Shown one piece after another: positions 12,034-61,251 of a stretch of 64,000 nucleotides of DNA. Each line of letters starts with the position of its first letter. Position 1 is the stretch's first letter. The position numbers were made by a program, and so were the translations under genes. A model generated the notes under the pieces. It saw nothing but the letters and a program-made list of their open reading frames with translations, ran no database searches and was not told the DNA's origin. This DNA comes from a virus, in IMG/VR virus record IMGVR_UViG_3300045988_050655; one strand, given 5' to 3'.

Positions 12034-12066
12034 GGAGAGGGTACGGAGCGGGTACGGAGAGGGTCT
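12034..12066. repeat. three tandem 11-nt repeats (GGAGAGGGTAC / GGAGCGGGTAC / GGAGAGGGTCT) abutting the integrase stop codon
   Basis: Read directly. The period of 11 nt is one helical turn. Confidence 0.75.
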
Positions 12067-13228
12067 AGTTCTTGTCGAAGAACTTATCAATGAGTCCCAT
12101 TGCATCATTCTTTTTCTTGTCTATAATCTTGGCATAAATCTCGGTGGTGGCGATTCTTGTATGCCCCATCAACTTGCTGGTAGTGTAGATGTCTGCACCC
12201 AGTGTAAGCATCATGGTTCCAAAGGTATGCCTTGCAGTATGAAAGGTGATGTCCTTCTTGATGCCAGCGTTGGCTGCCCATACCTTGATATGAGTGAGAA
12301 CCGTCTGTTCGCATCCCATACCATTGAAGATGAACTCGTTTCCGTCCTGCTCAGGCAACCATTCTATAGCCTTGCCTGACAGATTGTAGGAAACCATCTT
12401 GTTGGTCTTCTTCTGTATGATAGAAAGATGCCATGACTTGGTTCCGTCCTCGTTGGTCACTTCCCTGATGTCCGACCATTTCAGTCTCCTGATGTCCGAG
12501 ATACGCAAACCGCAAAAGCAGGAGAACATAAATGCCTGCTTGATAACTGGAACCTTGCATTCTGTTTCTGCCAGTTTCTTCACCTCCTCAATATCCAAGA
12601 AAACCCTACTTGTTTCAGGTTTCTTTGGCTTCTCTCGCTTATCCACCTCGCTGAATGGATTCTTGTATATCATTCCACTTTTCACGGCTCTGCTGAGCAT
12701 TTCATTGAGGTGGTTGCAATACATAATCTTGGTGTAGCTGGAAAGCGGCTCTCCATTGCTCTTCTTGGTGTTGTTCAGGAACTCAATGAATCCCACACAA
12801 TACTTCTTGTCAATGCTAGATAGCTTGATGTTATCTCCCTTGTAGGCGATGAGTTGCTTTCGGGTGCATTCTATCTGTGCTGCGATGCGGCTTGGAGACT
12901 GCGATGTCTTCATCTTGTAGGTCTTGAAGTTGTCTATCCAGTCCATGAGCTTCATCTTGCTCTTGACGGATATGATACCCGAAATGCTATTCTTGATGTC
13001 CAGTACTCTCTGAGCCTTGATAACATTGGCGGTAACCATAGTTTCAGCATTCTTTCTTCTTGCCTCTGCCTTACCTCTACCCACTTCTGGTACGATGTAG
13101 AGTTTCAGGAACTCATAGGTTCTCTTGCCGTCCTTGTAGATGTCCAGATAGACACTCTTGTTTCCGTTGGCAAGTTCCTTGAATCTGATAGTGACAGGTT
13201 CTTTTTCGATTGTTTTCTTCCTTCCCAT
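12065..13228 (-). CDS. int: tyrosine-type site-specific integrase (Bacteroides phage-integrase family)
   Basis: Catalytic region 'LRISDIRRLKW', 'HTARHTFGTMML', 'LMGHTRIATTEIYAKI'. ATG 13228 lies behind a TATCTTTG box. The ORF track extends to 13318. Confidence 0.9.
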   Translation of the reverse strand: MGRKKTIEKEPVTIRFKELANGNKSVYLDIYKDGKRTYEFLKLYIVPEVGRGKAEARRKNAETMVTANVIKAQRVLDIKNSISGIISVKSKMKLMDWIDNFKTYKMKTSQSPSRIAAQIECTRKQLIAYKGDNIKLSSIDKKYCVGFIEFLNNTKKSNGEPLSSYTKIMYCNHLNEMLSRAVKSGMIYKNPFSEVDKREKPKKPETSRVFLDIEEVKKLAETECKVPVIKQAFMFSCFCGLRISDIRRLKWSDIREVTNEDGTKSWHLSIIQKKTNKMVSYNLSGKAIEWLPEQDGNEFIFNGMGCEQTVLTHIKVWAANAGIKKDITFHTARHTFGTMMLTLGADIYTTSKLMGHTRIATTEIYAKIIDKKKNDAMGLIDKFFDKN

Positions 13229-13253: not shown

Positions 13254-13261
13254 CAAAGATA
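13254..13261 (-). promoter_or_regulatory. Bacteroides-type -7 box (TATCTTTG on minus strand) for int
   Basis: Exact match, 25 nt upstream of ATG 13228. Confidence 0.5.
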
Positions 13262-16828: not shown

Positions 16829-17137
16829 TTAACCTTCCTCTTCCGACATCTGTCTCAACTTCTCGGTAAGCGCATTGTGTACCTCACGCTTATCGTCAAG
16901 AGTGACGGTCTGTAGCTTAGGGCAATTAAACTCCAGTATCTTGATAAATGTTGCAACCTTATCTTTAGGCTCGCAATCATGCCAAGCTGACATAAAATCT
17001 TCCCAAGCCTCTCTAGAAAAGTCGGCACACAGCTCACGAAACTCCTTTGTGATAGGAGATTCGTACCCTTTCTGCTTTCCTCCAGTCTTCGGTCTTCCCT
17101 TCTCGAACTGACCTTTTGAATTTCTGTCTGCTGCCAT
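16829..17137 (-). CDS. hypothetical protein (DUF5681-like N-terminus)
   Basis: 'NSKGQFEKGRPKTGGKQKG' resembles DUF5681 / small-terminase-like N-termini (from memory). ATG 17137 lies behind late-type promoter P1. Confidence 0.55.
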   Translation of the reverse strand: MAADRNSKGQFEKGRPKTGGKQKGYESPITKEFRELCADFSREAWEDFMSAWHDCEPKDKVATFIKILEFNCPKLQTVTLDDKREVHNALTEKLRQMSEEEG

Positions 17138-17156: not shown

Positions 17157-17197
17157 CAAAGATAGCAATTATTCGTCAAACGGAAACTTTATCCGTT
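17157..17197 (-). promoter_or_regulatory. late-type promoter P1: AACGGATAAAG-N22-TATCTTTG (minus strand)
   Basis: One of six copies of the same 41-nt architecture. Confidence 0.6.
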
Positions 17198-17214
17198 AAT
17201 TTACCTCCAAAATA

Positions 17215-17255
17215 AACGGATAAAATACGATTCTCGGATGCTATTTGTATCTTTG
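17215..17255 (+). promoter_or_regulatory. late-type promoter P2: AACGGATAAAA-N22-TATCTTTG
   Basis: Same architecture. 30 nt upstream of ATG 17286, which opens the internal-protein / giant-protein operon. Confidence 0.6.
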
Positions 17256-17285: not shown

Positions 17286-17957
17286 ATGTTAGGAGCATTA
17301 ATTGGGGCAGGTCTTGGACTTGCAAGTAGTATCGCTGGTGGTGTAGCTAACCGCAAGGCGAGACGTAAGCAGGAGCAGATGATTGCCCAGCAACAGAAAG
17401 AAAATCAGGCATGGTATGACCGAACATACAATGCCGACCCGACCAAGCGTGCTGATACGGTTCGCTTGCTCACACAGATGCAGGAGCAGATTAAGAACAG
17501 AAACAAGGCTGCCAAGGGCAGACAGGCGGTGATGGGTGGTATGGAAGACTCCACTACTGCGGTGAAGGAGGCGAACAACAAGGTTCTTGCTGATACTACC
17601 TCACAGATTGTGGCTGCGAATGAGTCTCGCAAGGATAATATCGAGCAGCAGTATAGAGAGCGCAAGAATCAGTTACAGAACCAGCAGATGGGCATTGAAG
17701 CTGAGAAGGCTGCTGATACCGCTAATGCGGTGGCTGGCGTGGCTGGTACTGCTGCCAATATCGCTGCAACTATTGATAGTGGTGCTGGTGGAGCAAAGAA
17801 GGCTCCGAATATGAATGTGACTCAGGAGCAGTTGAATGGTATTGCCAAGAATCCGAATGATGTTCTTGGCTTGAAGGCGAAGACTACTGGGCTACCATCG
17901 CAAGGTGAACTGAATAGTCTTGGCTTGAAATTGCAAGAACAGAAAGTAAAAGCATAG
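17286..17957 (+). CDS. putative virion internal protein (Gly-rich hydrophobic N-terminus, Q/A-rich coiled coil)
   Basis: Composition and position as the first gene behind P2. No family recognised. Confidence 0.6.
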   Translation: MLGALIGAGLGLASSIAGGVANRKARRKQEQMIAQQQKENQAWYDRTYNADPTKRADTVRLLTQMQEQIKNRNKAAKGRQAVMGGMEDSTTAVKEANNKVLADTTSQIVAANESRKDNIEQQYRERKNQLQNQQMGIEAEKAADTANAVAGVAGTAANIAATIDSGAGGAKKAPNMNVTQEQLNGIAKNPNDVLGLKAKTTGLPSQGELNSLGLKLQEQKVKA

Positions 17958-17960
17958 CCT

Positions 17961-19073
17961 ATGAAAGCATCAGATATGTTACGACACAATAATGGCTTGA
18001 AGACTACACAGAGTGTACTCAACAAGCAGCAGAGTGGGGTGGATGCTGCCAACAAGGTGGCACAGACTCAGGCTCCAGTCTTCACCCAGCAGCAACTTGA
18101 TGCGGCTGGCAAGAAGGTTGACCAGATGAATGCTGCCACTCCCACCGATGATGCTATGAAGGCGGCTAGGGCTAAGACTATCGCTACTCAGCAAGCTATC
18201 GCCAATGGGGTGGACGTGAATCAGGGAGTGCCAAATGATGAGGAGGATAAACCATCCGTGCCTATCGTGAAGAAGGAGGAGCCAGCAGAACAGCCTAAGC
18301 AGTTGTCTTATGCCGACATGTATAAGATGCTGAATCCTGAGCAGCAGGAGACGGCTGAACAGAGGGCGAACAGAGAGAAAAAGGAGCGTACCAAGGCTCG
18401 TATCGCTGCTCTGGGTGATGGCCTCCGTGCGCTATCCAATATCTACTTCGCTACCAAGGGTGCAAAGGTGGTACACAATCCTGAGTCGGATATGACTAAG
18501 GCGGTGAATAAACGCAAGGCATATATGGATGCTCAGAGAGAGAAGAATCGGGCGGCTTGGCTGGCAGGGTATCAGAGGGCACTCGCTCTTGATGAGGAAG
18601 CTCGGAAGAATAACCTGACTCTCGCTGAGCAGATGAGGTATCACGATAATATGGATAGAGTCAATAGGGCAAAAGTCATGTTAGACCAAATGAGGATAGC
18701 ACAGCAAGATGAATACAATAAGGGTAAATTAAGTAATCAGGAGTCTGCGAACAAAGAAACCGTTAGACATCATAAAGAGCAGGAAAGTACTAGTAAGAAG
18801 AATGCCAACGCTAATGTGACTAGAGCACAAAAGGCAGGAAAAAATAAAGGTGGTTCTTCTAAAGAAAACTATAATAAAACTCTCGCTGGTTTAACTACTA
18901 AAGACCCTAATGGAGTAAGAGCGGTTACTAAGAGTTTGAAACGTGCTGGTGTTCCTCAAAATGCACAGACAATAGTAGAGGCTTACAGAACACAGAATGG
19001 TTCATTCCATGGTGGCGGTTCTACGAGTAACAATAGTCGAGCTAAGCAATTAGCCAAGAAGTATGGATTTTAA
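17961..19073 (+). CDS. putative virion internal protein (low-complexity, K/Q/A-rich)
   Basis: 370-aa ORF immediately upstream of the giant gene. No family recognised. Confidence 0.6.
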   Translation: MKASDMLRHNNGLKTTQSVLNKQQSGVDAANKVAQTQAPVFTQQQLDAAGKKVDQMNAATPTDDAMKAARAKTIATQQAIANGVDVNQGVPNDEEDKPSVPIVKKEEPAEQPKQLSYADMYKMLNPEQQETAEQRANREKKERTKARIAALGDGLRALSNIYFATKGAKVVHNPESDMTKAVNKRKAYMDAQREKNRAAWLAGYQRALALDEEARKNNLTLAEQMRYHDNMDRVNRAKVMLDQMRIAQQDEYNKGKLSNQESANKETVRHHKEQESTSKKNANANVTRAQKAGKNKGGSSKENYNKTLAGLTTKDPNGVRAVTKSLKRAGVPQNAQTIVEAYRTQNGSFHGGGSTSNNSRAKQLAKKYGF

Positions 19074-19084: not shown

Positions 19085-22000
19085 ATGCCAGATAATGTAG
19101 ATAAGTTATTTGAAATAATGCAGGCGAAAGGTGCTGCTAGTGATAGAGGTAAGTTCCGAAAAGTATTCTTGACTCCTGGCAATAAGGGGTATAAGATAAG
19201 AAAGGATATTTATGATGGACTCAGGGCAGACGGCATTATAGATAGTCCAACTTACGAGGATTTTAGACGAAAGCTAAGACTTGGTGGTACTCCAACAGTC
19301 AATAAGTATCGTCAGCAAATGTTTAACTCTGTTGACCCAAACAAGAGCAGAGCGTCAGAACTTACTAATAGAGCGGTAGGTCAGGCTGTAAGGGCAACCA
19401 ACAATGTCCGTAAACCAGTAACCGCAAAGGTTGTGAATCGGAAAGGTAAGCCAATTGGAGAGGAGTTTGCCATTACTCCTGCCAAGACCGTAGAAGACCT
19501 TGATAGGGAGTATGCTCAGGAGACAACAAAGAACTGGGAGAATGAACTGCATGACCAGATGGCTGATGCCGACAAGGATGCAGCAAAGATTAGCGATATG
19601 TTCAAGTCCTTCATCGGTTCTACTGATGAAGTAGGTAGTGTATGGGGTAACATGACTAGAGGTGGCGGTATCGCTGGTACTCCTCATAGTGTTACTACCA
19701 ACAATGGCATCATGGAGAATACAGAAGCTCGACAAATTCTTGCTGCTGGTGATTACAATCGTAAGAGAAGAGAACTCTTGCAGTTGGAGCAGGATTCAAG
19801 AAATGGTGCAATCTTTGACAATCATTCTTTTTTTAGAGGAATGTATGATGCAGCCAAAGATACTGGATTCCTGACTGGCGGTGCATCTGACCTTATCAAT
19901 GCTGGTTCCTTGCTTGCAACCAAGCAGGATTTGGATAATGGTGTCCATACTGAAGCTGGTGATATGCTGATGCAGCAAGCGGTAAAGAATAGTAATGCAC
20001 AGAGTCAGTATGGTGACAATCAGGGATGGATGTACACTGGTGGTGTTATCACTACCAATATGGCTCCTTTTATGGTGCAGATTGGTAGTGCTGGATTTTC
20101 CAAGGGTATGAGTAACGCTATTGGTAAGGTAGTGCAGAGTGCAGCTTCCAAGGTCGCATTGGGTATGATGAATAAGGCAATTGGATTGACAAGTACTCAT
20201 GTCGCAAACATCATAGGTAAAATGACTGGTCTTACTACCAAAGCATTCGGCAAGGCTATCCAGTATGGAATTGTAGGTGCTGCCCAAGCTAATACGGTTG
20301 GTCTTGGAAATGTGGCTAACGATGTGATTAACCGCTATACTGGTCAGGTCTATCAGGATGAGCAGGGCAACTACAAGTTTGGCACATTTGATAGTGATGG
20401 CAATCTTGTGCATGAAGGCGGTGAAGACTTCCTTACTGCTCTCGTAAAGGGTGAGGCGGCTCAGACTATTGAGTTTGCTACTGAGTTGGCTGGCGGTGGA
20501 ATTGATGCTGCTGGTACTGCCCTGAAGAACTTCGTTACCAAAGGTGGCAAGAAAATTATCAACAAGTACAACATGGAGAATGTTTCCAAGGTGATTGACT
20601 TCTTGCTTAATAATAAGGTGGCAAAGAATGCAAGATACTTGAAGGCTGGTGCTGACAGAACTCTTGGCAAGGTTGAAGTGAATAGTATTGTCGGTGAGTC
20701 TCTGGAGGAAGAGTTGGGTATCATCGCCAACACGGTCTTTACTGGTGATAATAAAATCTCAGACTTGTGGGATGAAAAGCAGCAGTCTCAGATATGGGGC
20801 GGCATGCTCTTGTCTATCGGATTGATGAAGGGTGCTGTTGCTCCTTTCCATGCTTATAATGCCAAGCAGTATTATTCCTATAAGCATAAGCTAGACAAGG
20901 CTGATGTGAACTTGTCTCAGTTGCTCGGTAAGGAGAAGTGGGAAGAACTCCGTAATCAGATTGATACTACAACAAACGATGATATGCCTGAAATGGTAAA
21001 CAGAATCAATCGTGATGTTGCTCTTGGTAAGAACAGACAGCCAGTGCGTGAGTATATTCAGAACTTGCTCATCATGCGTGGATATGACATTGGCAACATG
21101 CTTGCTGCAAAGAAGGCAGTTGAAGACAAGGGTGAAGGTGTCTCTGTGAAGAATATGGAGAAGAATCAGGCATACCAGCAGGGTCGTGATGCTTATGGCT
21201 ACGATACTCATGAGATTCAGTTAGACCAAGAAGACAAACAAAAGTCTCTTGCCCAACTTCTCGGTATCTCAGAGCAGCAGTTGGCATCCATGAGTGATGA
21301 GGAACTTGATGCACTCTCTGGTCGTGATGATAATATTGATAGGGCTATCTATGACTACCAGTTATCTACTGCTCGCTATGAAGGTGTGATTGATAATGCA
21401 AGAGACCAGATAGACTTGGAGGTTCAGAGGGCAGCACAAGCGGTTGATATGTACACAGACAAGTCTCGCAATACAATCCGAAATGCTACCATCAAGGCTA
21501 CTGGCGGCTTGGAAGACTATGGTGTTTATATTATTAATGGTAATATCGCTACCCATGAAGATGGTTCCATTGATATTAGTAATAGTGATGATATGATTCT
21601 GTATTATGACCCAACTACCAATACGGTTGAGCATGCTGATGCCATGATGTTTGCTGAACTGGGTAGTGAGGAGAATGCTGATGAAGTGAGAAGTCAGGCT
21701 ATGGCTGATGCCAAGGAGAAGGCTATCAAAGAGACTACTGGTATCATTGATGGTGTTGTAGAGGTAGGTACTCAGTTCAAGACCGTTGATGCAGATGGAA
21801 CAGAACATACTTATGAAGTACTCGCTGATAATGGTGATGGTACTGCCATGATTACTATTGATGGCAACATTCCAACTGAACTTGTCAAGGGTGAGAATGT
21901 AAATATTCCAGTCTCGTTTGAAGAGTTGCAGAAGATGAAGGATGAGTCTGACCAGCAGAGATTGCAAGCGGCAAAGGCTCAGCGAGAACAGATGGAGAAG

Positions 22001-25000
22001 GAGCGTGCTGAGCAGCAAAATCAGGAGACAGAAGAGACTCAACCTTCATTTGACTTCAAAAAGATACTCAATGATAATGGTAACGTGGTGCTTGCTGATG
22101 TACTCGACGAGGATGGCAATACAAGATACCCAAACTCAAAGTTATTTCTCATCCGTGATTCTGGTGCTAAAGCTAAGGTGGTAGAGTTGAAGAGTGATGG
22201 CACTCTTAAATCTCATGCCGTTGATAAGAAAGACGTGAGAACTGCTACTACTATGTCGCTCGATGAATACAAACAAGCTATGGCTGAATCCTCAATGATA
22301 GAGGATAATAGTGGAGAGAATAGAGGTGAGATAGAGGCTGAAACTTCAATAATAGAGGATGCTGAACCAATAGGAACTGGTGCGTTTGGCAACATCTATA
22401 ATCAGTTTAAGGGCAAAGTTAAGGAGGCTTTCAACTTCCTGATGAGTCATAAGAGTGGAGATTTACTTGGTGTCTTCCATCGTGATGATGTTGGAGACAT
22501 TGACCTTGTATGGGGTAACGAAAAGATGGGTTTGGCTCATATCCTTGGAAAGCATGTAGGTGAAGGAAAAGACTTTGAGACTCCAGATGATGCTATTGAA
22601 ATGATTGAGAATGTTATTAATAGCGGTCGTATCTTCCAAGATAATCAGAATCGCTATACATTAATGCTTGATGGTGTAGGTGTAGGTATCAGAAAGAGTT
22701 TCGATGGCGAGAAAAAGAATTGGATTGTGACTGCTGTTGACTTTAATAGAAGTCAAGAAGAAAAAGGAATCGTCACCAATCCCACGTCAACCTCTCATGG
22801 TGTTACTGAGTCAGAGTCTGCTGCTGCGCTCAACGATTCCGATGGCAAAGATATTAATAATTCTGCAAACGACAATGAAAATAATGAAAGTTTAACATTT
22901 GAGGATGGTACTCCTATCCCAGTTGATGAGAATGGAGAGACTGACCTTAGCCAGACTGATGCTGCTCATGCTGCTGAGTGGTATGATAATAACCTCGGTG
23001 AGGATGCTGACGATTGGTTGGATGGAGAAATCAAGAAGGCTAAGAAGGTATTGGAGCAAGCACAGAATAAGAAGGTGACTGGCACTAAGCCTTCTGAGTT
23101 GGTTGCAAGCAAGAAAGAGAAGGAAGCTGCCATTGCTGATGCCCAAGCACATTATGACTCTGCAATCTCTATTCGTGATTCGTTGAAGGAAAGAAGAATT
23201 GCCAAGGAAGAGAATACTGCTGAGGGTAGGAAGGAACTCATTGAGAAGGAAAGAAGAAAGTTCGCTCGCTTGAAGAGTGCGGTGAAGGATGATGCTGAGG
23301 CGGTTGCTCAACTCTATAAGGAGACGGTTGGTTCGTTGCTGCATCGTCTTTACGATGGTACTGGCATTGACGTGACAGATACGATTCCGCTTACTGCTGA
23401 GGAGTATGTGGCTAGTAACCTCGGTGCTCACTCTCTCAACTATGAGGGAACAGAGACAAGCAAGGGTGTTAAGCAGGAGACTGGTTTGAACAGAGAAGAC
23501 TTTGCTAAGACTCAGTTGCTGGCTGCTGATGGCAAGGGAACTACTATTGATAACCTTGTGCATAGTCTGTGGGAGAATCGTCCATCTAACCTTGATTCGC
23601 TCGGCACACAAGAGATTCGTAACGCTTTGCTCAGCGTAATCACTAGCGGTTTCAAGGCATCGGAAGCAAGAAACTATATAGAGAATCTTCGTATTGCTCA
23701 GGCTGAGAACTTCCTTGAAGAGCAGAAGAAGGCTGCTGACAATGCCGCATTCGCTGAGGAGAATAAGGCTGAATCAGAACAACAGACTGAAACGGCTACT
23801 GAATCTGAGGAGAAGACTGGGGAAGACAACTCTGATGAGATTAATGATGAGGATAATGAGAAGATAAATGAGCAGACAAATGAGAATATAAATGCTCCTG
23901 AGGTTCCTGAGGATGCAACGGAAGAGAATCCACTTGGCTTACAACTTAGCGAAGATAAGGTTCCGTTTGAAATTGAAGGAGGAAAGAGCGGTGAGACATA
24001 TAACATAAATGATAATGAAGACAGACAGAGACTTATCAATGACAATAAGGTGGATGATAAGGACATCTTGGATATTGATATGCCTAAACATGTACACAAG
24101 GCTATTAAGGAGTTGTGTAAGAAGATGGGATTGAAGGTTCAGTTCCTTTATATGGGCGCAAGGTCAAATGGTTGGATAGAGAATGGAACCATGTATCTTG
24201 CTCTGGACACAGAGATGGCTACCCAGTTTGTGTTTGGTCACGAAATGACTCATGCAATCAAGCAGAAGAATCCTGAGGCATACAAGGAACTCGTTAAGGT
24301 TGCCATGGCTGTAACGACAAAGAAGAAGTTTGAGGAAGACTTGGCAAAGGTTTACCAAAACTATCATGGTATCTCTGGATATAACAATGTTGATGATTAC
24401 GTTGAGGAGGTTGTTGCTGACAACTTAGGAAAGTTCATTAATAACTTTGACTTGGCACAGAAGTTTTCTCTTCGTCTCAATCATCCTGTATTGGCAACGA
24501 TTCTTCATGCTATACAGAAGATAAAGAGTCTGTTATATGGAGACTTCTACAAGTCTGTAGATGCTTTGGAGCGTATCGTTGAAAAGGCATACGTTGATAC
24601 TGCCAAGGGTGAGGTGACGAACTCTGAGACTGGCGAAGATGTTTCCTTCTCTCTCCGTCAAAAGCCTGAACCTAAGAAGAAGGGCATCGGCTACAAGGTG
24701 TTCGTGTTGAAGGATGGCAAACTCTATCCACCAATGGTAGCGAACCCTGATGGTGCTGCTACTCCAGTAGGTGTATGGCTTGATGCTGATGCGGCTCCTA
24801 TTGCTGGAGAAAGCAAGACTGGCAGACCTCAGGTTAAGCAGGGCGGCAAGGGAACACAAGGCGGTAGCGGTAAGCTAGCCTATAGACCAGGCTGGCATCT
24901 TGGTGTTGTGCCTTATGCTATCCAGTTCAACCGCAAGGATGCTGAGGGAAACAAGACTCTCTTCCCTAAGAACTTTGTCTTCGCTGAGGTGGAGTATGCT

Positions 25001-28000
25001 GCTGATGTTGATTATCAGGAGGAAGCTCGCCAAGAGGGTATCAATCCATCGGGTAAGTATCAGCATTCTCTCGCTGGCTTGAAACATTTGCCTACTGATG
25101 GCTATTATATGTATCGTACCAACCCGAACCCTGAGACTGACCCTTGGGTGATTACTGGTGCGATGAAGGTGAACCGCATCTTGACCAGAGCAGAGCAAGC
25201 AGAACTTGTGAAGAAGACTGGTCGTGAACCTCAGCAGATTCAGGAGGGCGATATTGTTACTGATGATGTTGTGAACAGCATCAATCAGGAGATAGCTGAT
25301 GCCCCTAAGTTCTCGTTGAAAGACCCATTCAAGATGTCTGACAATGAGAAGAAGGAGCGTGGTGATAGACTTATTAAGGCTCCAGCTATTAATGTGGCTA
25401 GTGGTGTCATTCAGAAGACTGCTGACTTGTCTGCAAGAAAGGCTGCTGAAAAGTGGTGGAATGAGAATGTAGCAAAACCTCTCGTCTTCAATACAGAGGT
25501 TGGTGATGTGGAGATTAATGATAAATCTATCAAGGATTCACTTGCTCATAGATACAGACAACCTAAGTTGGATGCCATTACATCATTACCTGATGGATTT
25601 GGAAATGCGGTGTACCTTGGTACAATGAAGGACTTCACTAGGGATGGTGATGTAAACAATCACTATTTCGCTTATCCTATCAATTATGATGGGCAGAGAA
25701 ACTATGTGTTCTGTCGTGCTATGCAGGATGCTAACAAGAATAGATTATATGTGCATGAGGTGTTTGTTGCTGATAAAATAAACGAGGGCAATACCCTTCA
25801 AACCACAGCGTCACAGCCTCATGGAGGTATTGCCCTCTACAAAGAAATTCTTGCGAATGTTCTTTCTGCTGCAAAGATAGACAATTCTTCTGAAACTACC
25901 AAGGAAAATGGCGAAAAGTTTTCATTGAAGGACGAAAAAACTCTTGCAGGAGTGCATAACATTACTGAGGAGAAGCTGAGAAAGGCTTTGAAACTGGGTG
26001 GCTTTGCCAATCCTTCTTTGGCTGTAATTGATACTAACAAGACTGGTCACGACAACTTTGGAGAGATTTCCTTCATCGCTCCTTCTGCCCTTGTAGATAA
26101 GCGTACTGGCAAGACTGCTGGTACTTGGATAACTGATGCCTATACTCAGCGTTATCCTTCCGTAGAACGAGAAATGAGCGAGAAAGGCAGTCAGAAGTTT
26201 AGAGACTGGGTTGATAGCCTTGAATACCCAAGTGAAGCTAAGGCTGAGATTAAGAGACAGGCAGAGGATGCTCTGAGCAACAATAATGCTCCTGCTTGGG
26301 AATTGATGTACTTGAAGGAAAAGGGTATTGACATTAAGGAGTATGATTCAAGAATTGATTATCGCTGGAAAGAAATTATCAAAGACCATCCAACTGTTGA
26401 GGACATTCTGAATAGTATGAATACTGACCCTGAACTGAATGAAAAGGTTACAGGTCTCGCTAAGCATATCATCGTTGACCCTATACGGGGAAAGATTTCG
26501 TTGGAGGTGAGAAGAAAGATATATGAAGAGACTGGTGTTAAGATGAGTTCTCTCAATCCACAAGTAAGAAAACAGACTAAGGAAATCTTTGAGCGTGACT
26601 ATGCGCCAAGTCTTCTTAACAAGAATGGTACACCAAAGAAATCCGATGTAAAGAAGGTTGTTGAACAGATGGTGAAGGAGCACAACGACACAAAGAAGTA
26701 TGACTTCTATCTGTCTAAGGTGAAGGCTAGTAATTACGTCAACAAGAATGGTCTTTATGATGATTACATCAGATGGCAGGAGAACAAACTGGATGAGTTC
26801 GGAACAAAGAACCGTATCTTCCGTGGCTATACTAAGGATGGTTCCAGAAAGTATGTGCCTGAGACTCTTGAAAATGTTTCAAAGGCTATGAGGGAAGAAG
26901 CAGATGGGCAGACCAATGGAAGCGAATATACCTCGTTTGGTAGCTTTATCGCAAAGTTGGCTAGTCGTGTTGATTCTACAGACGAAATGCGTGCCAACAA
27001 GGATAAGTTGTCTTCTAATAAGGATAAGGAAGAATTTTACGAGAAATGGTCGGACGTATATTATGACCTTGCCAAGTTCTTTTATAATGATGTGTTCTAT
27101 GGCGAGCAGAGACTTCACGATATTGTATTGCAGTCTGACCCTAAGAAGTATGCCAAGAAAGAATATGGCATTACCCTTACTCCTACCTTCATGAAGAAGC
27201 TGGATGCCTTGAAGAATGCAGTACAGACAGAGTTGAAGAGTGCGTACTTTGAGACTAAGTACAACAGACCTCTCCGTCTAAACGAGTTTGCTGCTGCCGT
27301 GGTTCCTGATAACTTGGGCGAAGATGTACGCAAGGGAATAGAGAATGCTGGCTTACCAATGTATGACTACGACCCGAATAAGGAAGGTGACCGCAGCCGT
27401 GCCTTCAATGAAGCTATCAATAGTAGAGACAATATCAAATTCTCTCTGAAATCTATGATGGCGAAACCTGAGGGATGGAAACAAGCCAACAAGAAGGCTA
27501 TACATATTGCAGAAGCTATTGAGCGTGACCCTAAGTTCTCCTTGAAGAACCTTGATGGAACTCTCATTAAGGCTGGAACATATTTTAGCGGTGGCGGTCT
27601 TGTTGAGGAAGGTTTGAAGGGTATCATCGACCCAGTGGTGGCAGTTGAGTATGACGAGAAGATAAGCGGTGTTTATCGCAACAACTTCGGGCAGCACATC
27701 GTTACTGCTGATGTTCGTGATGTTGACCCAAGAGAGTTGGTTAAGCTGATTGATGGCGAGGTAGAGTACTTCCATGCCAGCCCAGTCTGCAAGAACTACT
27801 CTCAGGCAAAGAGTAACCATGCTGAGGTGGAACTTGACAAGGAGACTGCTGCTAGTACTGCCGAGTTCATCAATGCTATCAATCCAAAGGTGGTGACAAT
27901 CGAGAATGTGAAGGGATATAAGGATTCGGATGCCATGAAGACTATTACCGATGCTCTGGATGCCAACGGCTACACTTGGGATGCAGATGTGTATAACGCT

Positions 28001-31000
28001 GCTGACTATGGCGGCTACACCAACCGAGAGAGATTGATTGTCCGTGCGGTTCGTGATGGCAAACTCCCTGAAAAGCCAAAGAAGATGGCACGCAAGAGCG
28101 GATGGTATGAAGCTGTGGCTGATATTATCCCGACCCTGACCGAGAAGAAGAATGGTGTGGCTCCTTGGATGGATATTCGATTGAAGGCTGATGGCATTGA
28201 CTGGCGAAACATTGACAAGCCATTATATGTGATGGGTAGTGCCTATGCTGACGGAAAGGTTCCTCATGCCTTCGCTGATGAACTGCTGCCTACACTCCGA
28301 ACCAAGAGCGGTGATGTGATTGTGATGCCTGATGGCAAGGTATATCGTGCCATGGGCAGAGTGCTCGCTAGAGTATCAGGAGTGAGCGATGATTACAAGA
28401 TGCCATTCTCTGAGAATCTGAGCCATACCATCATCGGCAACGGAATCCCTACTCAGTTGACCGAGCATGTTATTGCTCCTCTGCTTACTGGCTCCGACCC
28501 TAAGTTTAGCATCCGTACCTATCACGGCACTGGTGCTAGCTTTGACAAGTTCGATTTATCTCATGCCTTGGAAGGCGAGGGAAGTGAGAGCTTCGGTCAT
28601 GGTGTGTATGTTACCAACTCTAGCAAGATTGGACGTGAGTATGCCCAGAGAGCAAAGAATAGAAAGATGGAAGACCTCTATAAAAATATGCGCTACCCTG
28701 ATGGGGTGAAGGGCGATATTTTCAAGAGAAGAGTCTTTGGTGAAATGGTGAACGATGTGGCTACTGGCGGTAGTGTGGCAAGTGCCAAGGAGTTTGCCAA
28801 GAAACGTGTCGGTGCTGATGCCAATGATATTCAGCGTACCCTTGAAAACTTGAAGGATAGAGAGAAGGGAACTGAGTATGAACAGAACTTGAAGGATAGA
28901 CTTGCAGAGTATAAAGAAGGCTTGAAGTGGATTGATTCTCTTGATGAAGATTATCTTACCCAAGGGAACGCTAACAGATACGATGTGGATATTCCTGATG
29001 ATAACGGTGAAAATTACCTTGGATGGAATGAGTCTCAAAACTTCCCATTGGAAAAATGGTACAGACTATGGGAAATAACTCATGAAGGGTTTAATGAAAA
29101 CGAGTATTTCAAAGATGGTGGAGCGAGATATGATATAGATAGGATTGAGCGTATCACCCAAATGAAACTTGAATCGCCAGAGAATGGTATGCAGAGACTT
29201 CCTACATTAAAAGGTGAAGCATTGTATCATGCTTTGGAAGACTTCTTCAACCGTGAAAGACCTTCGTATGGTGCAGAATTAGCATCAAGGGCTTTGAGTG
29301 AAATAGGTTTTGTCGGTATCAAGTACCCTGCTGGAATGATTCATGGCGGTGCTGAGGAAGGAGATTACAACTATGTGATATTCGATGAGAACAATGCCAA
29401 TATCGTGGGTAATACCCGATTCTCCTTGCGCTATGACCAGTTTGAACACGACTTGAACCAGTGGAAGAAGGATAATAATCTGCCTAAGGATGCCCAGCGA
29501 CCAACCATCCCACAACGCAACGCTGGCGAGAGTGCTGCTGCATTCTTGAAGAGAGTGGATGAGTACCGCAAGCAGATGGCTCTTTGGAAGACTGCTCCAA
29601 CATACGAGCAGCATCTTCTGAGTGATGATACTGCCCTTGGAGAGTTCAACCGAGAGTTGCAGCGTGGTTCCGTGCTGAAACGTATCGCCTTCCAAGATAG
29701 TATGCTGGCTATCCGCAAGGCTCAGGAAGCTATCATGAAGGAAGTTGGTGTTGACCGCCTGAATATGGCTGAGGATGCCTATACTGCCGAGAACCGGAGT
29801 CACGGCAAGGGAAAGAATGAGTTTGAGGAGTACAATAATGAGTTCTTGCAGCCATTGAGAAAGGCTTATCACCAGATGAAGAAGATACTTGGTGATAGCT
29901 ACGATAATGTCCGTATCTACATGATGGCTAAGCATGGCTTGGAGCGTGATGCCCAGATGGCATTCAAGAAGTCACTGGATGCTGACTTTGAGGATGTGGC
30001 TCAGAGAAGTGCGGCATACAGGGCTTACAAGGGCGATATGAACCGTATTACCAATGATAGCGATTTGGAGTTTGGAAGAGTGGATTTCACTACTTGGAGG
30101 CAGAGAGATAATGCTCTCAGAACGAAATATTCTCCTTCCTATATGGACTATCGTTATGATGAGAATGGTATCGCCTACGATTATTCAGGCTTGTCGGCTC
30201 TCTTCGGTGGCTCTGACTTTGAGGAAGCTGCCCACAAACTGGTAAGGGATATTGAGAGTAGTCATGTAGCTGAGGTGCAAGACCTCTGGAATGCTACGAA
30301 TGCGGCTACCAAGAAGATTCTCCGTGATGGCTATAAGGCTGGTATGATGAGCAAAGATACTTATCAGTATGTGCGAGATATGTATAGCCATTATATTCCT
30401 CTCCGTGGCTGGGATGGCACTACTGCCGACCAAGTATGGGACTATATTGGTGGTGGCAAGGGTGCGTTCAATCAGACCTTGAAAACGGCACATGGACGAA
30501 CCTCTATTGCTGATGACCCTATCGCCTACATCGAGAATATGGCAGAAAGTGGAATCCTGCTGAACAACAAGAACTGGGTGAAGCAACACCTGATGCTCTT
30601 GGCTCAGAATCATCCAACTTCCCTGCTGACCCTGAGCAAGGCTTGGTACGTGAAGAGTACGGATGCCAACGGCAACGAGGAGTGGATTCCTGCTACACTT
30701 CAGATTACTTCTCATATGAATAGCAATCAGGTGAAGGCTGCTATTGATGCTTTCGAGCAGAAGATGGAGAATATGGCGCAGACTGGCGATGCTACCCAGC
30801 AGAGAGAAGGCTTGAATATTGCCTATCCTCAGACTCATAGCGAGGAGAGAGAACATGAGGTAAGAGTGATGAAGGATGGCGAGGAGTATATTATCTATGT
30901 GAATGGTGACCCTCAGTTGGCTCAGGCGATGAACAATACCAGAGCACACCGAGTGAGAGAAATTCAGAGCGGCAAACTGGATAGGGCTGCTGCTTGGTTG

Positions 31001-34168: not shown

Positions 34169-34209
34169 TACGAGTTTATCTATCTCTATCCATATTATTC
34201 GTATCTTTG
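34169..34209 (+). promoter_or_regulatory. second-class promoter: TACGAGTTTAT-N22-TATCTTTG
   Basis: The identical 11-mer and spacing recur at 53528-53568. Confidence 0.5.
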
Positions 34210-34273: not shown

Positions 34274-35242
34274 ATGGAAAGTAAAACGTATGTATTCGGA
34301 AACGAAGGCTCAACATCTAACAATGGGATGCTCGGTCTTCTTGCGCCTCTGCTCCAGAAGCAGGGTGTTGACCCAAATGTCCTTCTTGCCATGAAGGGAA
34401 ACAATGGTTTCGGTGGTGAAGGTGGATGGTTCATGTGGGTAATCTTCCTTTTCTTCCTCATGGGCTGGGGAGGTAACGGCTGGGGAGGTTTCGGCAATAA
34501 TGGTCGTGGTGGTCTCGCAAGCGAGATTAACAATGACTATGGTCGTGGTCTCCTGATGGATGCCATCGGTGGCAACCGCAATGCACTCAGCAATTTGGCT
34601 ACTCAGTTGAACTGCACCGAAGGTCAGATTCAGAGTGCCATTTCTGCCTTGACCTCTCAGGTACAGAGTGTAGGTAATCAGGTTGGTATGAGTGGCATGC
34701 AGACCATCAATGCTTTGCAGCAGGGTAATATGCAGATTGCTCAGCAGATTGCAAACTGCTGCTGCCAGACTAATAACAACATCACTACTCAGGGTTATGA
34801 GAGCAAGTTGGCTATCTGCCAGCAGACTCATGCCATCAACGACAATGCCAATGCCAACGCATTGATGTTGCGTGACACCAACCAGTCTAACCATCTTGCC
34901 TTGATGGGTAAACTCGACCAGATGCAGACTCAGGCAATGCAGGACAAACTTGATGCACTTCGTGAGAAGAATAGTGCTCTTGTGGCACAGATTTCCAACG
35001 AGCATCAGACTCAGGCTTTGCAGGCATACCAAGCACAGATTATCACTCCAGTGAATGCTGCCCTTGCAGCCTTGCAAGCAGAGGTAGCTGGCATCAAGTG
35101 CAAGTTGCCTAATACCGTATCTGTACCATATCCTCAGTTGAAGACCTACAACCCAGAGGTGTTCCAAGCAGCTGCTATGGGAGCATACGCTGGTGATGTA
35201 GCAGCAGCCAACGCAGCATCAACCGTAGGTTGTGGTTGTTAA
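34274..35242 (+). CDS. hypothetical virion-module protein (G/W-rich TM segment, Q/N/A-rich coiled coil, C-terminal GCGC)
   Basis: ATG lies 65 nt behind the promoter. The antisense 285-aa ORF is judged a shadow. Confidence 0.6.
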   Translation: MESKTYVFGNEGSTSNNGMLGLLAPLLQKQGVDPNVLLAMKGNNGFGGEGGWFMWVIFLFFLMGWGGNGWGGFGNNGRGGLASEINNDYGRGLLMDAIGGNRNALSNLATQLNCTEGQIQSAISALTSQVQSVGNQVGMSGMQTINALQQGNMQIAQQIANCCCQTNNNITTQGYESKLAICQQTHAINDNANANALMLRDTNQSNHLALMGKLDQMQTQAMQDKLDALREKNSALVAQISNEHQTQALQAYQAQIITPVNAALAALQAEVAGIKCKLPNTVSVPYPQLKTYNPEVFQAAAMGAYAGDVAAANAASTVGCGC

Positions 35243-38106: not shown

Positions 38107-39249
38107 TTATGCAGGAGTGATTAAGACTGTATAGTCCTTCTGCTGCAATTTTTCTACAGCTGTATCTGATGCAGATGTGCGAGTTCCTGCGCACATAATT
38201 GTTCTTTGTAAAGTTGAAAGACCACTCTTTGCAACACATTGAGCATTATCTTGAAGCATTTTGTCAATATTGCCGATATTGTGATTGCCAAACATACCAA
38301 GCACATAAGCAGAGATGCTTCTTGAACTCCAAGAAAAGACACTGCCCTTATCATCTTGGAAGTTAGCAAAATAGCAAGAGTCTGGTAACTTAGCCAAGTC
38401 ACCACTCAACAAGCTATTTTTAGACTCAAAACTGAAAAGCTTTACGTCCCCTTGCAATGAATCTATGTTTCCAGTACAATTCATAACTGAGAAATCATTT
38501 AAAGATGTCTTGCTAGAGAATGCCGAGATATCTCCAATAGCTTTTGTAGATAAAAGGCTGCATGAGACTAGACGTGATTTGTCTGTAAACACATTAATAT
38601 CACCATAAACATCTGTGTTGTAAAAATTAACAACTTGGATATTTTTGCTGCTATTTAAAGCTTTTATGTCTCCACTTATTTTGCAAGAAGAAAGATTTAC
38701 TTGTGACAAATCTGTTAAGTTAGACAAACATGCAATATCTCCATAGACTTTATCTGAATTAATTCTTACATTATTAAGAAAAGTTTTATTCTTAAACACA
38801 GCAATGTCACCAAATGCATTGGCATTTTTTAGGTTTACAGCAAACAAGCTACGAGAATACTTCAAAGAATCTATGTCAATAGTCCTGTTTGTAACAATAG
38901 AACTATTTGTGTGCCCTGTTGTAAAAAATATCAACGAAGTTAAGGCATATTTGTCTAATATCGCAACTTCAAAATCACCATTACTAACATATACATCAGT
39001 AATATCTGTTATGTTAGTGTAGGCTGGCACTGTTATAACTTTTCCCTTGTTCTGCGTAAGAGTAGAATCAGTAAAGTAACCTTCACCAATAATCTCTAAT
39101 TGGGTGTCTTTAGAGAATGCAAAACCGAATCCCTGAGTGTCCTCCGACGGTGAATCTACTCTACTCACACTTATTCTTAACTCTCCAATTCTTAAGCGCT
39201 TATCATTCTGAACAACGCTTTTTAATTTTGTTACAAAACATTTTTTCAT
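38107..39249 (-). CDS. leucine-rich-repeat protein (putative receptor-binding/tail accessory)
   Basis: At least 7 repeats of ~22-23 aa with '...L..v.l....v.GDI..f...' (for example 'KVYGDIACLSNLTDLSQVNLSSCKISGDIKALNSS'). Directly downstream of the tail fibre. Confidence 0.75.
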   Translation of the reverse strand: MKKCFVTKLKSVVQNDKRLRIGELRISVSRVDSPSEDTQGFGFAFSKDTQLEIIGEGYFTDSTLTQNKGKVITVPAYTNITDITDVYVSNGDFEVAILDKYALTSLIFFTTGHTNSSIVTNRTIDIDSLKYSRSLFAVNLKNANAFGDIAVFKNKTFLNNVRINSDKVYGDIACLSNLTDLSQVNLSSCKISGDIKALNSSKNIQVVNFYNTDVYGDINVFTDKSRLVSCSLLSTKAIGDISAFSSKTSLNDFSVMNCTGNIDSLQGDVKLFSFESKNSLLSGDLAKLPDSCYFANFQDDKGSVFSWSSRSISAYVLGMFGNHNIGNIDKMLQDNAQCVAKSGLSTLQRTIMCAGTRTSASDTAVEKLQQKDYTVLITPA

Positions 39250-42200: not shown

Positions 42201-43106
42201 CTGCTGCTTATCGTCAATCTGAGACTGGAGGTCTGTGTCCTTCTCGTGAAGCTGTTTGATAGACTTGTCTACATCTTGAATCATCTGATTTAAATCATCA
42301 GGGAGACCAGTGGCGGCTTGGATGGTTTTACGAAGCTCTGGGTCGAACTTTCCAATGCTTAGCGTGTTGTCTGCTATCTTTTCGTTTGTGACGGAGCCAT
42401 CCTTGATTTTCTCGGTAGTTACAGAATCGGGAGACAACTTGGCGTTACCGATGCTGCCATCTACTACCTGAGAAGCATCGACTGAATTGTCGGCAAGTTT
42501 GTCCTTGGTGATAGATTTTCTTGCTACCTTCTCTGTGGTTACAGACTCATTGGCGAAATGCTTGGTCTCCAAGGATGCCTCACGAACTACTCTGCCATCT
42601 ACTGACTGGTCGCCCAACTTTGCATTGGTGATAGCCTTCTCTTCTACCTTCTCCGTGGTTACGGCTCGGTCGTTCAGCTTCTCGGTGATGATAGATTCAT
42701 TCTTAATCTTTTCCGATGTTACCGCATTAGGGGAGAGTTTGGAATTGTCTACTGCGCCATCATTCAACTTATCCGTGGTTACTGCCTTATTGTTGATTTT
42801 TTCGGTCTCTACAGATGAGTCGGCAAGTTTGGAGGTGGTGATGTTGGCATCTGCTACCTTGTCGGTGGTGACGGATGCAGCATCCAGTTTGTCGGTGGTT
42901 ACCGATTCATTCTCCAATTTCTCTGTAGTAACGGCTTTGTCGGCAATCTGCGTAGTTCCGAGTTGGTCGGTCTTGTTGACCTTCTCGTCAAGAAGCTCCT
43001 TGGTGGATTTACCCGAACTCTCATCCTTGACATATCTGGTGTATGTCAAGGTCTCGTCGGCTGCTCCACTTACGAGCGTGTTGTTATAAACGGTTTCTTT
43101 TGCCAT
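39273..43106 (-). CDS. tail fibre protein with N-terminal 11-aa repeats and C-terminal CotH-like domain
   Basis: About 18 copies of an 'xxAVTTEKLxD' unit at the N-terminus. The C-terminal ~540 aa carry CotH-like motifs (see finding). Confidence 0.85.
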   Translation of the reverse strand: MAKETVYNNTLVSGAADETLTYTRYVKDESSGKSTKELLDEKVNKTDQLGTTQIADKAVTTEKLENESVTTDKLDAASVTTDKVADANITTSKLADSSVETEKINNKAVTTDKLNDGAVDNSKLSPNAVTSEKIKNESIITEKLNDRAVTTEKVEEKAITNAKLGDQSVDGRVVREASLETKHFANESVTTEKVARKSITKDKLADNSVDASQVVDGSIGNAKLSPDSVTTEKIKDGSVTNEKIADNTLSIGKFDPELRKTIQAATGLPDDLNQMIQDVDKSIKQLHEKDTDLQSQIDDKQQQITANDDDISLLQTRSTQMEEAIKGISASGGASQASAVTYENTESGLDSVTAQGAIDELANKKFNKENIAQEFGDSKDKVVSQFALPFREIESPEFIKAIVDAEDHFLLGIQLDGSIEWGKGIPAPIRAKLQEIINQCQQDKTDILESINSVKEELSANITALQEGKVDKEEGKSLIEDEVKECFRIIENEEFIKAIVDSEDKVLFGFYRATGKPYYPLNEMYHVEQNEEFFALWQDAANHVLLGIRRDGQIIGEIHAVNALKQVISQLQSDLASLQEKVDTIDVYLKELLDVFSLQDNEEYLAVEQDAEGKILSATNPDGSHYIHNAKSETIPTEFSHIEDPEGRTEITIDAEEKVMSFRDLQGKKHEYDMEVTNLDVSNLNLQGNSVNNIQDALKANGFDVKTPVDWSESSFIQIPEPRFAIINVSNIDSMPTTKTDNKKAFLEFWDMHGNYFKKRAILNAQGNSSLGFIKKSVAIDLCDDEWIGDETPKVRIGEWVPQDSFHMKAYYTDFFRGVGAVSYKLYDQIVRTRGNMYDRPWKKALVEMNKISFTTKSLGNPHVGDYSLLTDTGARCFPDGFPCAVYLNGKFYGIFSFQLKKHRDNYHLDKSVAENIHLDGILGHASFFGGKDNIDWSQFEIRNPKGLYAIGGNKYDADIRQEEIAGQTEVDSWITSGTLPDGTEISSKIKKNLLFTAQVKQIIENLSDSLPKVIEAKDKYEGTKSETDLQAMKVLFEKYFDVDNLVDYVILSDLIKNTDGFEKNWQWFSYDGVKLYVGLYDCDQSFGSNDHGYSTSEPLSTHVSSFIKRPEGFIVNYYQEELSNRYKELADKGIINANNIFGLLKDWCLRIGTDFFKEEYRKWNDSPCIADSIVRSEYWNVVKDTNGNIQTSLSETFDATKAYNVGDKVSFGMNEQMGYFNFVCIKATEPLAVNEPHEVSIYSPIKQYKHCDNIYRVEKWIVQNLKNMDILYNYSR
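42345..42947 (-). repeat. about 18 degenerate 11-residue (33-nt) coding repeats in the tail fibre N-terminal rod
   Basis: IADKAVTTEKL / ENESVTTDKLD / AASVTTDKVAD ... TTEKIKDGSVT / NEKIADNTLSI (aa 54-254). Confidence 0.75.
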
Positions 43107-44049: not shown

Positions 44050-44090
44050 CAAAGATAGGCAGAAATTTCTATACCTATCTTTTATCCGTT
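44050..44090 (-). promoter_or_regulatory. late-type promoter P3: AACGGATAAAA-N22-TATCTTTG (minus strand)
   Basis: Same 41-nt architecture. 27 nt upstream of ATG 44022. Confidence 0.6.
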
Positions 44091-61244: not shown

Positions 61245-61251
61245 TGCTAAA

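Follow-up and report, generated by a model that had tools for sequence, protein, structure and literature searches.

The 64,000-nucleotide (nt) stretch of viral DNA analyzed here (IMG/VR record IMGVR_UViG_3300045988_050655; hereafter the window) carries six copies of a bipartite element, AACGGATAAAR-N22-TAnnTTTG, in which a shared 11-mer is held exactly 22 nt upstream of a -7 box of the Bacteroides type. We interpret the six sites, with a probability of about 0.65, as activator-dependent phage promoters that are built on a Bacteroidetes core, such that the host sigma-ABfr would read the -7 box and a phage-encoded factor would read the 11-mer. Sequence comparison established the cis architecture of these sites, its conservation and concerted variation among related phages, and the lack of any excess in cellular genomes. 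The six sites, referred to as P1 to P6, are arranged as follows:

P1, 17157-17197, minus strand: AACGGATAAAG-N22-TATCTTTG; 11-mer at 17187-17197; ATG at 17137, 19 nt from the end of the -7 box.
P2, 17215-17255, plus strand: AACGGATAAAA-N22-TATCTTTG; 11-mer at 17215-17225; ATG at 17286, 30 nt after the -7 box.
P3, 44050-44090, minus strand: AACGGATAAAA-N22-TATCTTTG; 11-mer at 44080-44090; ATG at 44022, 27 nt after the -7 box.
P4, 47523-47563, plus strand: AACGGATAAAA-N22-TAATTTTG; 11-mer at 47523-47533; ATG at 47595, 31 nt after the -7 box.
P5, 54075-54115, plus strand: AACGGATAAAG-N22-TATCTTTG; 11-mer at 54075-54085; ATG at 54152, 36 nt after the -7 box.
P6, 60409-60449, minus strand: AACGGATAAAG-N22-TATATTTG, followed by CAAA and then by ATG at 60404; 11-mer at 60439-60449.

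The 11-mer AACGGATAAAR matched the window exactly six times, compared to a mean of 0.06 in shuffled sequences, and the composite AACGGATAAAR-N22-TANNTTTG (i.e., the TAnnTTTG class) recovered the same six sites, with 0.00 expected. When up to three mismatches were allowed over the 17 specified positions, still just the six perfect sites were returned (0.32 expected), and the 11-mer alone had two copies with one mismatch in the window, both of them within coding sequence. Given that near-miss copies are almost nil, the box class is sharply bimodal. The six spacers are unrelated, with a mean pairwise identity of 0.37 and a maximum of 0.45, and alignment with the flanks revealed a weak 5' extension of the shared block (AT[A/T]AACGG). 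A weak cGGAA sub-motif at spacer positions ~10-14 was also considered and was rejected, as its positions are not fixed in the related phage BKO1-TP3.

All six sites end with TA..TTTG, which is the -7 element of the host sigma-ABfr, and all six -7 boxes are found in non-coding DNA, co-oriented with the first gene of the operon and 4-36 nt upstream of its start codon. The window is 92.6% coding and contains 66 TAnnTTTG boxes, 18 of which are intergenic and located no more than 150 nt upstream of a co-oriented gene start; the 11-mer is associated with 6 of these 18. In Bacteroides, the canonical sigma-ABfr promoter consists of -33 TTTG and -7 TAnnTTTG (Bayley et al. 2000 as cited in Ryan et al. 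2020, PMC7366714), and the spacer of host promoters is variable in length (Ryan et al. 2020, PMC7366714). The phage sites have a -7 box identical to that of the canonical promoter, but differ from it by the lack of -33 TTTG, by the rigid 22-nt spacer and by the conserved 11-mer, which is found in this phage family only. The canonical promoters of the window itself, at 9557 (minus strand) and 13760 (plus strand), have the layout TTTG-N20-box, and TTTG at this position is absent from all six box sites. The 11-mer is in turn absent from the int promoter (13254-13261, minus strand), from the 13760 promoter and from the promoter at ~6625 (TACATTTG, minus strand). A first-pass annotation of this DNA had described the six copies with their shared 11-mer and exact 22-nt spacer, the unrelated spacers without a fixed -33 TTTG, and the lack of the 11-mer at the int, 13760 and ~6625 promoters, and each of these descriptions was confirmed.

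The genes of the window are those of a temperate tailed phage with a guanine-cytosine (GC) content of 43%. They include a tyrosine integrase gene (12065-13228), an early operon with RNase H and HNH genes, a minus-strand string of recombination/replication genes (NinB, VRR-NUC, PD-(D/E)XK nuclease and C5 methylases) and virion/lysis genes (tail fibre, TerL, SU10-type capsid, P22-type portal and endolysin). P1 and P2 are a divergent pair, as had been noted before, and their two boxes form a 15-nt inverted repeat. P1 would drive a lone gene for a protein of 102 amino acids (aa; 16829-17137) with unassigned function, which is homologous to gp58 of BKO1-TP3 and to gp71 of BF1-TP2. The latter is annotated as DUF5681; identification of the P1 gene as a small terminase/DUF5681 gene was not adopted, as this label is found on the BF1-TP2 homologue only, there is no Pfam match and the 53 database homologues are unnamed. 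The P2 operon encodes a T7 gp14-like internal virion protein (17286-17957), a 370-aa protein (17961-19073) and a 4641-aa polyvalent protein (19085-33010, plus strand) with C5 DNA methylase, PBECR1 and PBECR5 nuclease, LPD3, LPD14 and LPD38 domains, as well as an ART-PolyVal domain that is sub-threshold (E 1.2e-5, below the Pfam cut-off). The polyvalent protein, whose counterparts in relatives are 5349-6914 aa long, is presumably ejected with the DNA.

The P3 operon encodes a 304-aa protein (43108-44022), a 1277-aa tail fibre (39273-43106) and a 380-aa protein (38107-39249), and P3, which directly follows the terminase operon, has the position of an internal promoter. The P4 operon encodes a scaffold-like protein (47595-48410), an SU10-type major capsid protein (48464-50005), two small proteins and a P22-type portal (51173-53209). 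Downstream of P5 is the lysis cassette with an 87-aa holin-like protein (54152-54415), an endolysin (54417-54974) and further genes up to 56494. The P6 operon encodes proteins of 147 aa (59961-60404), 861 aa (57397-59982) and 268 aa (56588-57394), whose functions are unassigned. Thus, the earlier claim that the motif always precedes structural or lysis operons holds for P2 to P5 by gene content, and the genes of P1 and P6 are without assigned function. The overlap of the motif with upstream coding 3' ends at P5 and P6 was also verified: the P5 box covers the last 9 nt, including the stop codon, of the open reading frame (ORF) 53598-54083, and the P6 box with half of its spacer lies within the 3' end of ORF 60425-60700. 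The terminase operon begins with the following features:

47474-47481, minus strand: -7 box of the terminase operon, TATATTTG, 11 nt from the ATG at 47462; the operon runs from 47462 down to 44110.
47007-47462, minus strand: gene of a 151-aa protein; it is the operon's first gene and comes immediately upstream of the terminase genes.

P3, P5 and P6 sit within long co-directional gene strings. Intrinsic terminators that would insulate these three sites were searched for and were not found beyond chance: terminator-like hairpins in the window are at chance level (15 vs. 13.9 expected), none of them just downstream of the sites and none before P3, P5 or P6. One terminator-like hairpin with 10 pairs and a T-rich tail (61024-61048, minus strand), which could be due to chance, is found within the early minus-strand string between ORFs 61053-61331 and 60702-60998, just upstream of a 98-aa gene in the position of lambda Q. 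Sigma-70-type promoter-like sites are depleted between 43000 and 62000 of the window, where 19 were found vs. 33.3 +/- 4.9 in shuffles.

Among cultured phages, the closest relatives are three that are temperate and of Bacteroides, namely BKO1-TP3 and BS-TP4 (capsid ~61% identical) and BF1-TP2 (46%); they were described in PMC12694917, where promoters are not mentioned. A megablast search with 20 kilobases (kb) against 50,697 phage records returned two trivial matches only and no near-identical annotated phage; relatives were then found at the protein level. Scanning IMG/VR for the composite identified at least 119 stretches, and most of the matches listed were 45-68-kb contigs with a shared geometry, in which a divergent pair is ~58 base pairs (bp) apart and a minus/plus pair is ~3.46 kb apart. 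Because this IMG/VR set was selected by motif, the relatives for footprinting were re-fetched by protein homology, with homologues of the P4-adjacent 151-aa protein as the query and with targeted contig look-ups. Relatives of the 151-aa protein are encoded by more than 577 IMG/VR stretches; those from the locus search of this family that were 95-98% identical were too close for footprinting and were replaced. The lineages compared, with the identity of their 151-aa proteins to that of the window, are:

L204, 60%: AACGGATAAAG at the P3 and P4 equivalents and AACGGATAACA at the P5 equivalent.
L331, 69%: AACGGATAAAA at the P3 and P4 equivalents.
L330, 64%: AACGGATAAGA at the P3, P4 and P5 equivalents.
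L329, 56%: AACGGATATGA, AATGGATATGA and AATGGATATAA at three promoters (AAYGGATATRA).
L328, a GC-rich prophage fragment adjoining host genes, 43%: AACGGATAAAG-N22-TACATTTG before scaffold/capsid and before portal, with unrelated GC-rich spacers.
BKO1-TP3, 42%: (GTA)AAAAG[A/T]TAAA[A/C]-N22-TAnnTT[T/C]G (i.e., AAAAGWTAAAM) at four sites before orthologous operons.
BS-TP4: the box type of BKO1-TP3, (GTA)AAAAGWTAAAM, at six sites.

Among the P4 orthologues of eight lineages, mean identity was 0.80 for the box vs. 0.36 for the spacer. In the loci selected by protein homology, N22 was exact in 74 of the 76 box cores that had a -7 box within 30 nt. In these related phages, the box was kept at N22 while the spacers diverged. 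Box positions 9-10 were homogeneous in 174 of the 188 loci with at least two sites; AA and AG variants were mixed in just one locus, and the AAGA variant is characteristic of a large sub-lineage. The copies, though dispersed, have therefore changed in step, as would be expected if cis sites follow the specificity of a single trans factor. In BKO1-TP3 and BS-TP4, about half of the -7 elements linked to a box are the weaker TAnnTTCG, not the host TAnnTTTG, and such weaker boxes fit promoters that need an activator. A scan of viral contigs with the AAYGGATATRA pattern returned mostly scattered single matches from unrelated environments and was uninformative.

We noticed that the portal gene, where it is split from the capsid operon, has its own box-N22-(-7) promoter, which is AACGGATAAAG-N22-TACATTTG in L328 (13100-13231) and AATAGTTAAAC-N22-TATATTTG in BS-TP4 (L571, 17682-17752); the module therefore moves with genome rearrangements. 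In BKO1-TP3 and BS-TP4 (L120/L121 and L571/L572), the box read in reverse (TTTATCTTTTTAC) is itself -7-like, immediately before the P1-type gene. At P1 of the window, the box pairs with an inverted half-site 7 nt off (AACGGA / TCCGTT, 17179-17197), which may be a putative third binding site in the divergent P1/P2 region, and the P1 spacer (TTTCCGTTTG...) recurs in many relatives. P3 contains a perfect 9-nt inverted repeat (AAAGATAGG/CCTATCTTT, 44051-44059 and 44074-44082), of which one arm runs from the box's 3' end into the spacer, and the other from the last part of the spacer into the -7 box. Similar arms are found in the P3 equivalents of L204, L329, L330 and L331, and the repeat might serve as an operator that puts the tail operon under additional control.

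The composite was also scanned against 185,579 bacterial and archaeal species, each represented by one genome. The cellular matches listed were single and were scattered over unrelated phyla; ~140 matches would be expected by chance for a 33-bit pattern and ~1.2e12 strand-positions. Among the sites listed, 109 of 121 (90%) were within ORFs that were 80 aa or longer, as would be expected by chance, and the only contig listed with two matches was L260, from a metagenome-assembled genome of Prevotella, where they had the P3/P4 geometry of a relative. Bacteroidota accounted for ~32 of 80 loci in the listed genome matches, as counted from record titles. Given the near-chance frequency and the mostly in-ORF location, the box is neither a general signal of hosts nor common in coding DNA. 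This bears on the proposal in the first-pass annotation that frequent occurrence of the 11-mer in coding DNA or in hosts would speak against a promoter element: cellular frequency was about that of chance among the matches listed, and the window has 6 copies vs. 0.06.

In addition to the 11-mer, a second class of box occupies the same slot in the window:

34169-34209, plus strand: second-class site TACGAGTTTAT-N22-TATCTTTG (-7 box 34202-34209), 64 nt before gene 34274-35242.
53528-53568, plus strand: second-class site TACGAGTTTAT-N22-TATCTTTG (-7 box 53561-53568), 29 nt before the DUF7841 gene 53598-54083.

These two are the only copies of TACGAGTTTAT in the window. The DUF7841-gene promoter of L204 is TGCGAGTTTAT-N22-TAATTTTG with an unrelated spacer, and the second-class composite is found in 83 of the 331 fetched loci. 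At least two conserved boxes thus make use of the N22 slot; this implies that there is more than one specificity or gene class, and shows that the regulon is more complex than one factor and one box.

At P6, the distance from the -7 box to ATG is 4 nt, compared to 19-36 nt at the other five sites. The same distance is found at the P6-type sites of three lineages whose sequences differ, i.e., TATATTTG-CAAA-ATG in the window, TACTTTCG-TACT-ATG in BKO1-TP3 and TATTTTCG-TATT-ATG in BS-TP4. With the box centred at -7 (PMC7366714), its G would be near -4 and transcription would start on or next to the A of the ATG; P6 most likely yields a leaderless mRNA, as had been proposed from the P6 sequence of the window and as is now further supported by the identical distance in BKO1-TP3 and BS-TP4. 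Just ~3.7% of B. thetaiotaomicron mRNAs have a 5' untranslated region shorter than 10 nt, so that a leaderless P6 would be unusual yet conserved. The typical 5' untranslated region is ~23-32 nt long, with which the other five box sites are consistent.

The factor that would read the box was searched for among the phage proteins. Pfam scans of 70 window ORFs, which are nearly all of those called, revealed no Sigma70_r2/r3/r4, Mor/C (PF08765), Ogr, Q, ArpU/RinA, MotA or AsiA domain, and none of these was found in the PHROG matches of the window ORFs or in the structure-informed annotations of BKO1-TP3, BS-TP4 and BF1-TP2; a very divergent sigma factor could still be encoded by the phage. The small non-structural proteins common to the window and BKO1-TP3 are the 102-aa protein of P1, the 151-aa protein (gp49 in BKO1-TP3) and the membrane protein that follows it, a 101-aa protein (44110-44415), the 147-aa protein encoded by the first P6 gene (gp32 in BKO1-TP3) and, weakly, the 98-aa protein. 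Among these, only the 147-aa and 98-aa proteins have no detectable homologue in BF1-TP2; that their absence tracks the lack of the box architecture in this phage is suggestive at most, with three genomes compared. The 151-aa protein is a candidate factor by its position alone, next to the terminase genes, and is present in every relative examined. Its AlphaFold2 model has a predicted local distance difference test score (pLDDT) of 91 and consists of two helix-helix-strand-helix repeats. No Pfam, NCBIfam or PHROG annotation was obtained for this protein, a profile search against PDB found none, and Foldseek against PDB/BFVD returned nothing below E = 0.7. Its identification as a sigma-, ArpU- or TerS-like factor thus found no support in sequence or fold. 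Two other ORFs near P6 were considered:

60702-60998, minus strand: gene of the 98-aa protein, located at the early/replication operon's distal end, just upstream of P6 (i.e., the lambda Q position); a weak candidate.
60425-60700, minus strand: 91-aa Cys-rich ORF (CxCxCG...SCGC), whose 3' end holds the P6 box.

The 98-aa protein weakly matches gp31 of BKO1-TP3 (pairwise E 3e-6), whose gene lies where the early operon ends, with the P6-type promoter directly after it. No homologue of the 98-aa protein was detected in BF1-TP2, and a shallow alignment of 18 homologues gave a mediocre model, with a pLDDT of 69 and no fold match. The 91-aa protein was rejected as an Ogr-like activator, as it matches only the N-terminal part of an HNH endonuclease (phrog_374, E 7e-21) and has no homologue in BKO1-TP3. 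Probably, it is a DNA-binding module that derives from a homing endonuclease and is either free-standing or a remnant.

Under the proposed mechanism, host polymerase with the primary sigma-ABfr would recognize the TAnnTTTG -7 box, and a phage protein would bind the asymmetric 11-bp box in place of -33 TTTG and recruit or stabilize the polymerase. This would switch on one regulon that comprises the ejection-protein, tail-fibre and scaffold/capsid/portal operons, the lysis cassette and two further units, with P3, P5 and P6 acting as internal boosters inside long co-directional strings. When the -7 box is placed at -11 to -4, the spacer extends from -33 to -12 and the 11-mer from -44 to -34, with its center at ~-39. 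The center of the box is 31.5 bp, or three helical turns, from that of the -7 box, which would place the two elements on the same face of the DNA; such geometry would fit class-II-type activation or sigma appropriation. We infer that transcription starts at these sites, that it does so late, that the phage itself encodes the protein bound there and that this protein acts as an activator, not as a replacement of sigma, lateness being deduced from gene content alone, i.e., from the virion and lysis genes downstream. The first-pass annotation had suggested that the 11-mer replaces the -33 element and is read by a phage-encoded activator or sigma-like factor. The cis part of this suggestion is well supported, given the exact N22, the missing -33 TTTG and the conservation of the box, and it withstood all computational checks that might have refuted it; a phage factor is supported indirectly; the sigma-like option is without positive support, because no sigma-like domain was found in any scanned ORF.

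Several observations weigh against activation by a phage factor. The promoter of the terminase operon has no 11-mer in its own N22 slot, and terminase is normally a late function; the P4 box lies ~60 bp upstream of the expected start site of this operon, on the opposite strand. BF1-TP2, which is more distant and has the same structural genes, contains no clean equivalent of the box. The G10 variant looks like a single clade, so that the concerted change is essentially one evolutionary event at several sites. The identical box across 43% protein identity and differing GC content could also be explained by a conserved host factor. In the 151-aa protein, the residue after FWVS separates boxes with A10 from those with G10 almost perfectly (Glu is near-invariant with the canonical box, and S/D/V/A are found in the AAGA clade), but at least nine other columns do so about equally well; this covariation was therefore attributed to phylogenetic linkage and was rejected as evidence of binding. 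No informative sequence or fold match that would assign DNA binding was obtained for the 151-aa and 98-aa candidates. As for BF1-TP2 itself, CATAACGATAAA-type sequences in its equivalent intergenic regions (e.g., gp70/gp71) were considered and were rejected as a further lineage of the box, as they are not N22 from a -7 box. This phage (L326) has two copies of an 18-mer, AACGATAAATCTTACCCG, one upstream of the terminase operon (gp58) and the other upstream of gp66 (39170-39187 and 46090-46107), and these repeats may represent a different regulatory scheme.

The explanation that competes most directly with activation is that a phage sigma factor or sigma appropriator remodels region 4 of sigma-ABfr, so that the holoenzyme would read the 11-mer as a -35-type element together with the -7 box, as in T4 AsiA/MotA. 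We regard this as unlikely. A rigid N22 is what would be expected if a single protein complex touched both elements, the host-type -7 box is retained while -33 is replaced, the box TACGAGTTTAT in the identical slot resembles an interchangeable specificity module, and the weak ART-like domain of the polyvalent protein could modify host polymerase. The lack of Sigma70, MotA and AsiA domains in the scanned window ORFs and in the annotations of the three cultured relatives argues against it, however, and the gap between the box and the -7 box exceeds that of the TTTG-N20-box layout of the window by 2-3 bp, so that a region-4-like module would sit further upstream. The box sites also have no -10 type of their own; their downstream element is the host consensus TAnnTTTG, which speaks against a phage sigma regulon. 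A further and more novel reading, which we put forward tentatively as possible, is that the segment from -44 to -34 could be a docking slot for a new family of phage transcription factors specific to the sigma-ABfr polymerase and non-homologous to known sigma factors and late activators, of which the 151-aa tandem-repeat protein might be an example. The two or more specificities (AACGGATAAAR and TACGAGTTTAT) would then correspond to two temporal or functional gene classes within one phage, and would have drifted between sub-lineages (AAAR, AAGA, ATRA and AAAAGWTAAAM).

It is quite improbable that the box is the site of a host-encoded regulator or alternative sigma factor (e.g., one linked to stress or SOS) that is exploited by the phages. 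The identity of the 11-mer between lineages as distant as 43%, with differing GC content, the lack of a DNA-binding candidate from the phage and the over-representation of Bacteroidota among the genome matches listed are all consistent with such a regulator. These genome matches are chance-like in number and 90% are inside ORFs, however, and an excess of Bacteroidota is expected anyway, as TAnnTTTG and AT-rich sequence are common there. Moreover, phages that infect Bacteroides use different boxes (AACGGATAAAR, AACGGATAAGA and AAAAGWTAAAM), each homogeneous per genome, and promoters of the extracytoplasmic function type would not pair with a sigma-ABfr -7 box. Still more improbable, in our view, is that no dedicated factor exists, with the box being an UP-element-like or curvature enhancer of host polymerase or part of a promoter cassette that was copied around the genome. 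The A/T-rich 3' end of the box (GATAAAR) is placed where contact with the alpha C-terminal domain or other upstream contact could occur, and recent copying would also give six perfect copies; but copying would have carried the spacers along, and these are unrelated. An asymmetric, G/C-containing 11-mer that is kept over deep divergence and undergoes concerted single-base switches points to base-specific readout by a protein, not to DNA shape, and the unrelated box TACGAGTTTAT in the identical slot is likewise at odds with the absence of a factor.

The proposed phage promoters can be compared with known systems for phage gene activation. In phage Mu, the dispersed Mor/C promoters have a host-type -10 element and no usable -35 element, and are activated by a small, earlier-made phage protein, which binds as a dimer to an imperfect dyad that overlaps the -35 region and is centred at ~-43.5. 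The sites described here are similar in that dispersed promoters of morphogenesis and lysis genes keep the host core element and have a phage box upstream; they differ in that the box lacks symmetry, five of the six sites being without a dyad (only P1 has a nearby inverted half-site), in that its center is at ~-39 and the -7 element is of the Bacteroidetes type, and in that no Mor/C domain is found in the scanned ORFs. In the middle promoters of T4, whose host polymerase uses sigma-70, the MotA box is centred at ~-30, 11-13 bp from the -10 element. There too, the host core element is kept and -35 is replaced by a phage box at a tight distance, whereas the gap here is 22 bp, the host sigma is sigma-ABfr and neither Pfam nor PHROGs gave a MotA/AsiA match. 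P2 Ogr and P4 Delta are small zinc-finger proteins that act at four or more dispersed late promoters without a good -35 element, through TGT-N12-ACA dyads at ~-55. The dispersed promoters are a likeness to this system; the sole small Cys-rich protein here (60425-60700) is, however, an HNH-family module. In the lambda Q system, there is a single late promoter with a Q-utilisation site and a read-through terminator, in contrast to six dispersed promoters, hairpins at chance level and no Q-family match here.

According to the published descriptions of RinA, ArpU and Ltr (PMC3152322, PMC3753634), a small activator gene is found immediately upstream of the terminase genes, and genes for packaging, morphogenesis and lysis are not transcribed without it. 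The position described for this activator gene is the one that the 151-aa gene has in the window. As described there, RinA/ArpU/Ltr act on one promoter upstream of terS for a single long late operon, in contrast to the six dispersed promoters of the window and its terminase operon without a box. Comparison of the 151-aa protein with the RinA, ArpU, LtrA, LtrB and LtrC families gave no match in Pfam, NCBIfam, PHROG or PDB profiles, nor did Foldseek below the E value given above. Full-text and topical literature searches returned no paper that describes the box, or any late-promoter element of temperate Bacteroides phages. The system combines classical regulatory logic with a Bacteroidetes-specific core promoter, a new cis element and a predicted factor that is apparently non-homologous to the known ones.

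As a late-promoter box read by a phage factor is a classical concept, its occurrence here is a moderate surprise. The diverged variants of the box (AAAR, AAGA and AAAAGATAAAC) are candidates for orthogonal, induction-dependent promoters in Bacteroides engineering, and the docking-slot interpretation, if true, would provide a natural set of orthogonal promoter/activator pairs for Bacteroides. The phage family is very common in human-gut viromes, with BS-TP4 detected in 31% of 930 Chinese gut viromes (PMC12694917), and the timing of gene expression in temperate Bacteroides phages is largely uncharted. The analysis predicts an activator, or a sigma adaptor, for the unusual sigma-ABfr polymerase, and cultured lysogens of BKO1-TP3 (B. 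koreensis HM3) and BS-TP4 (B. salyersiae BG8) exist. For the family as a whole, the box defines the virion/lysis regulon at the level of sequence, and this definition can serve in the annotation of hundreds of genomes.

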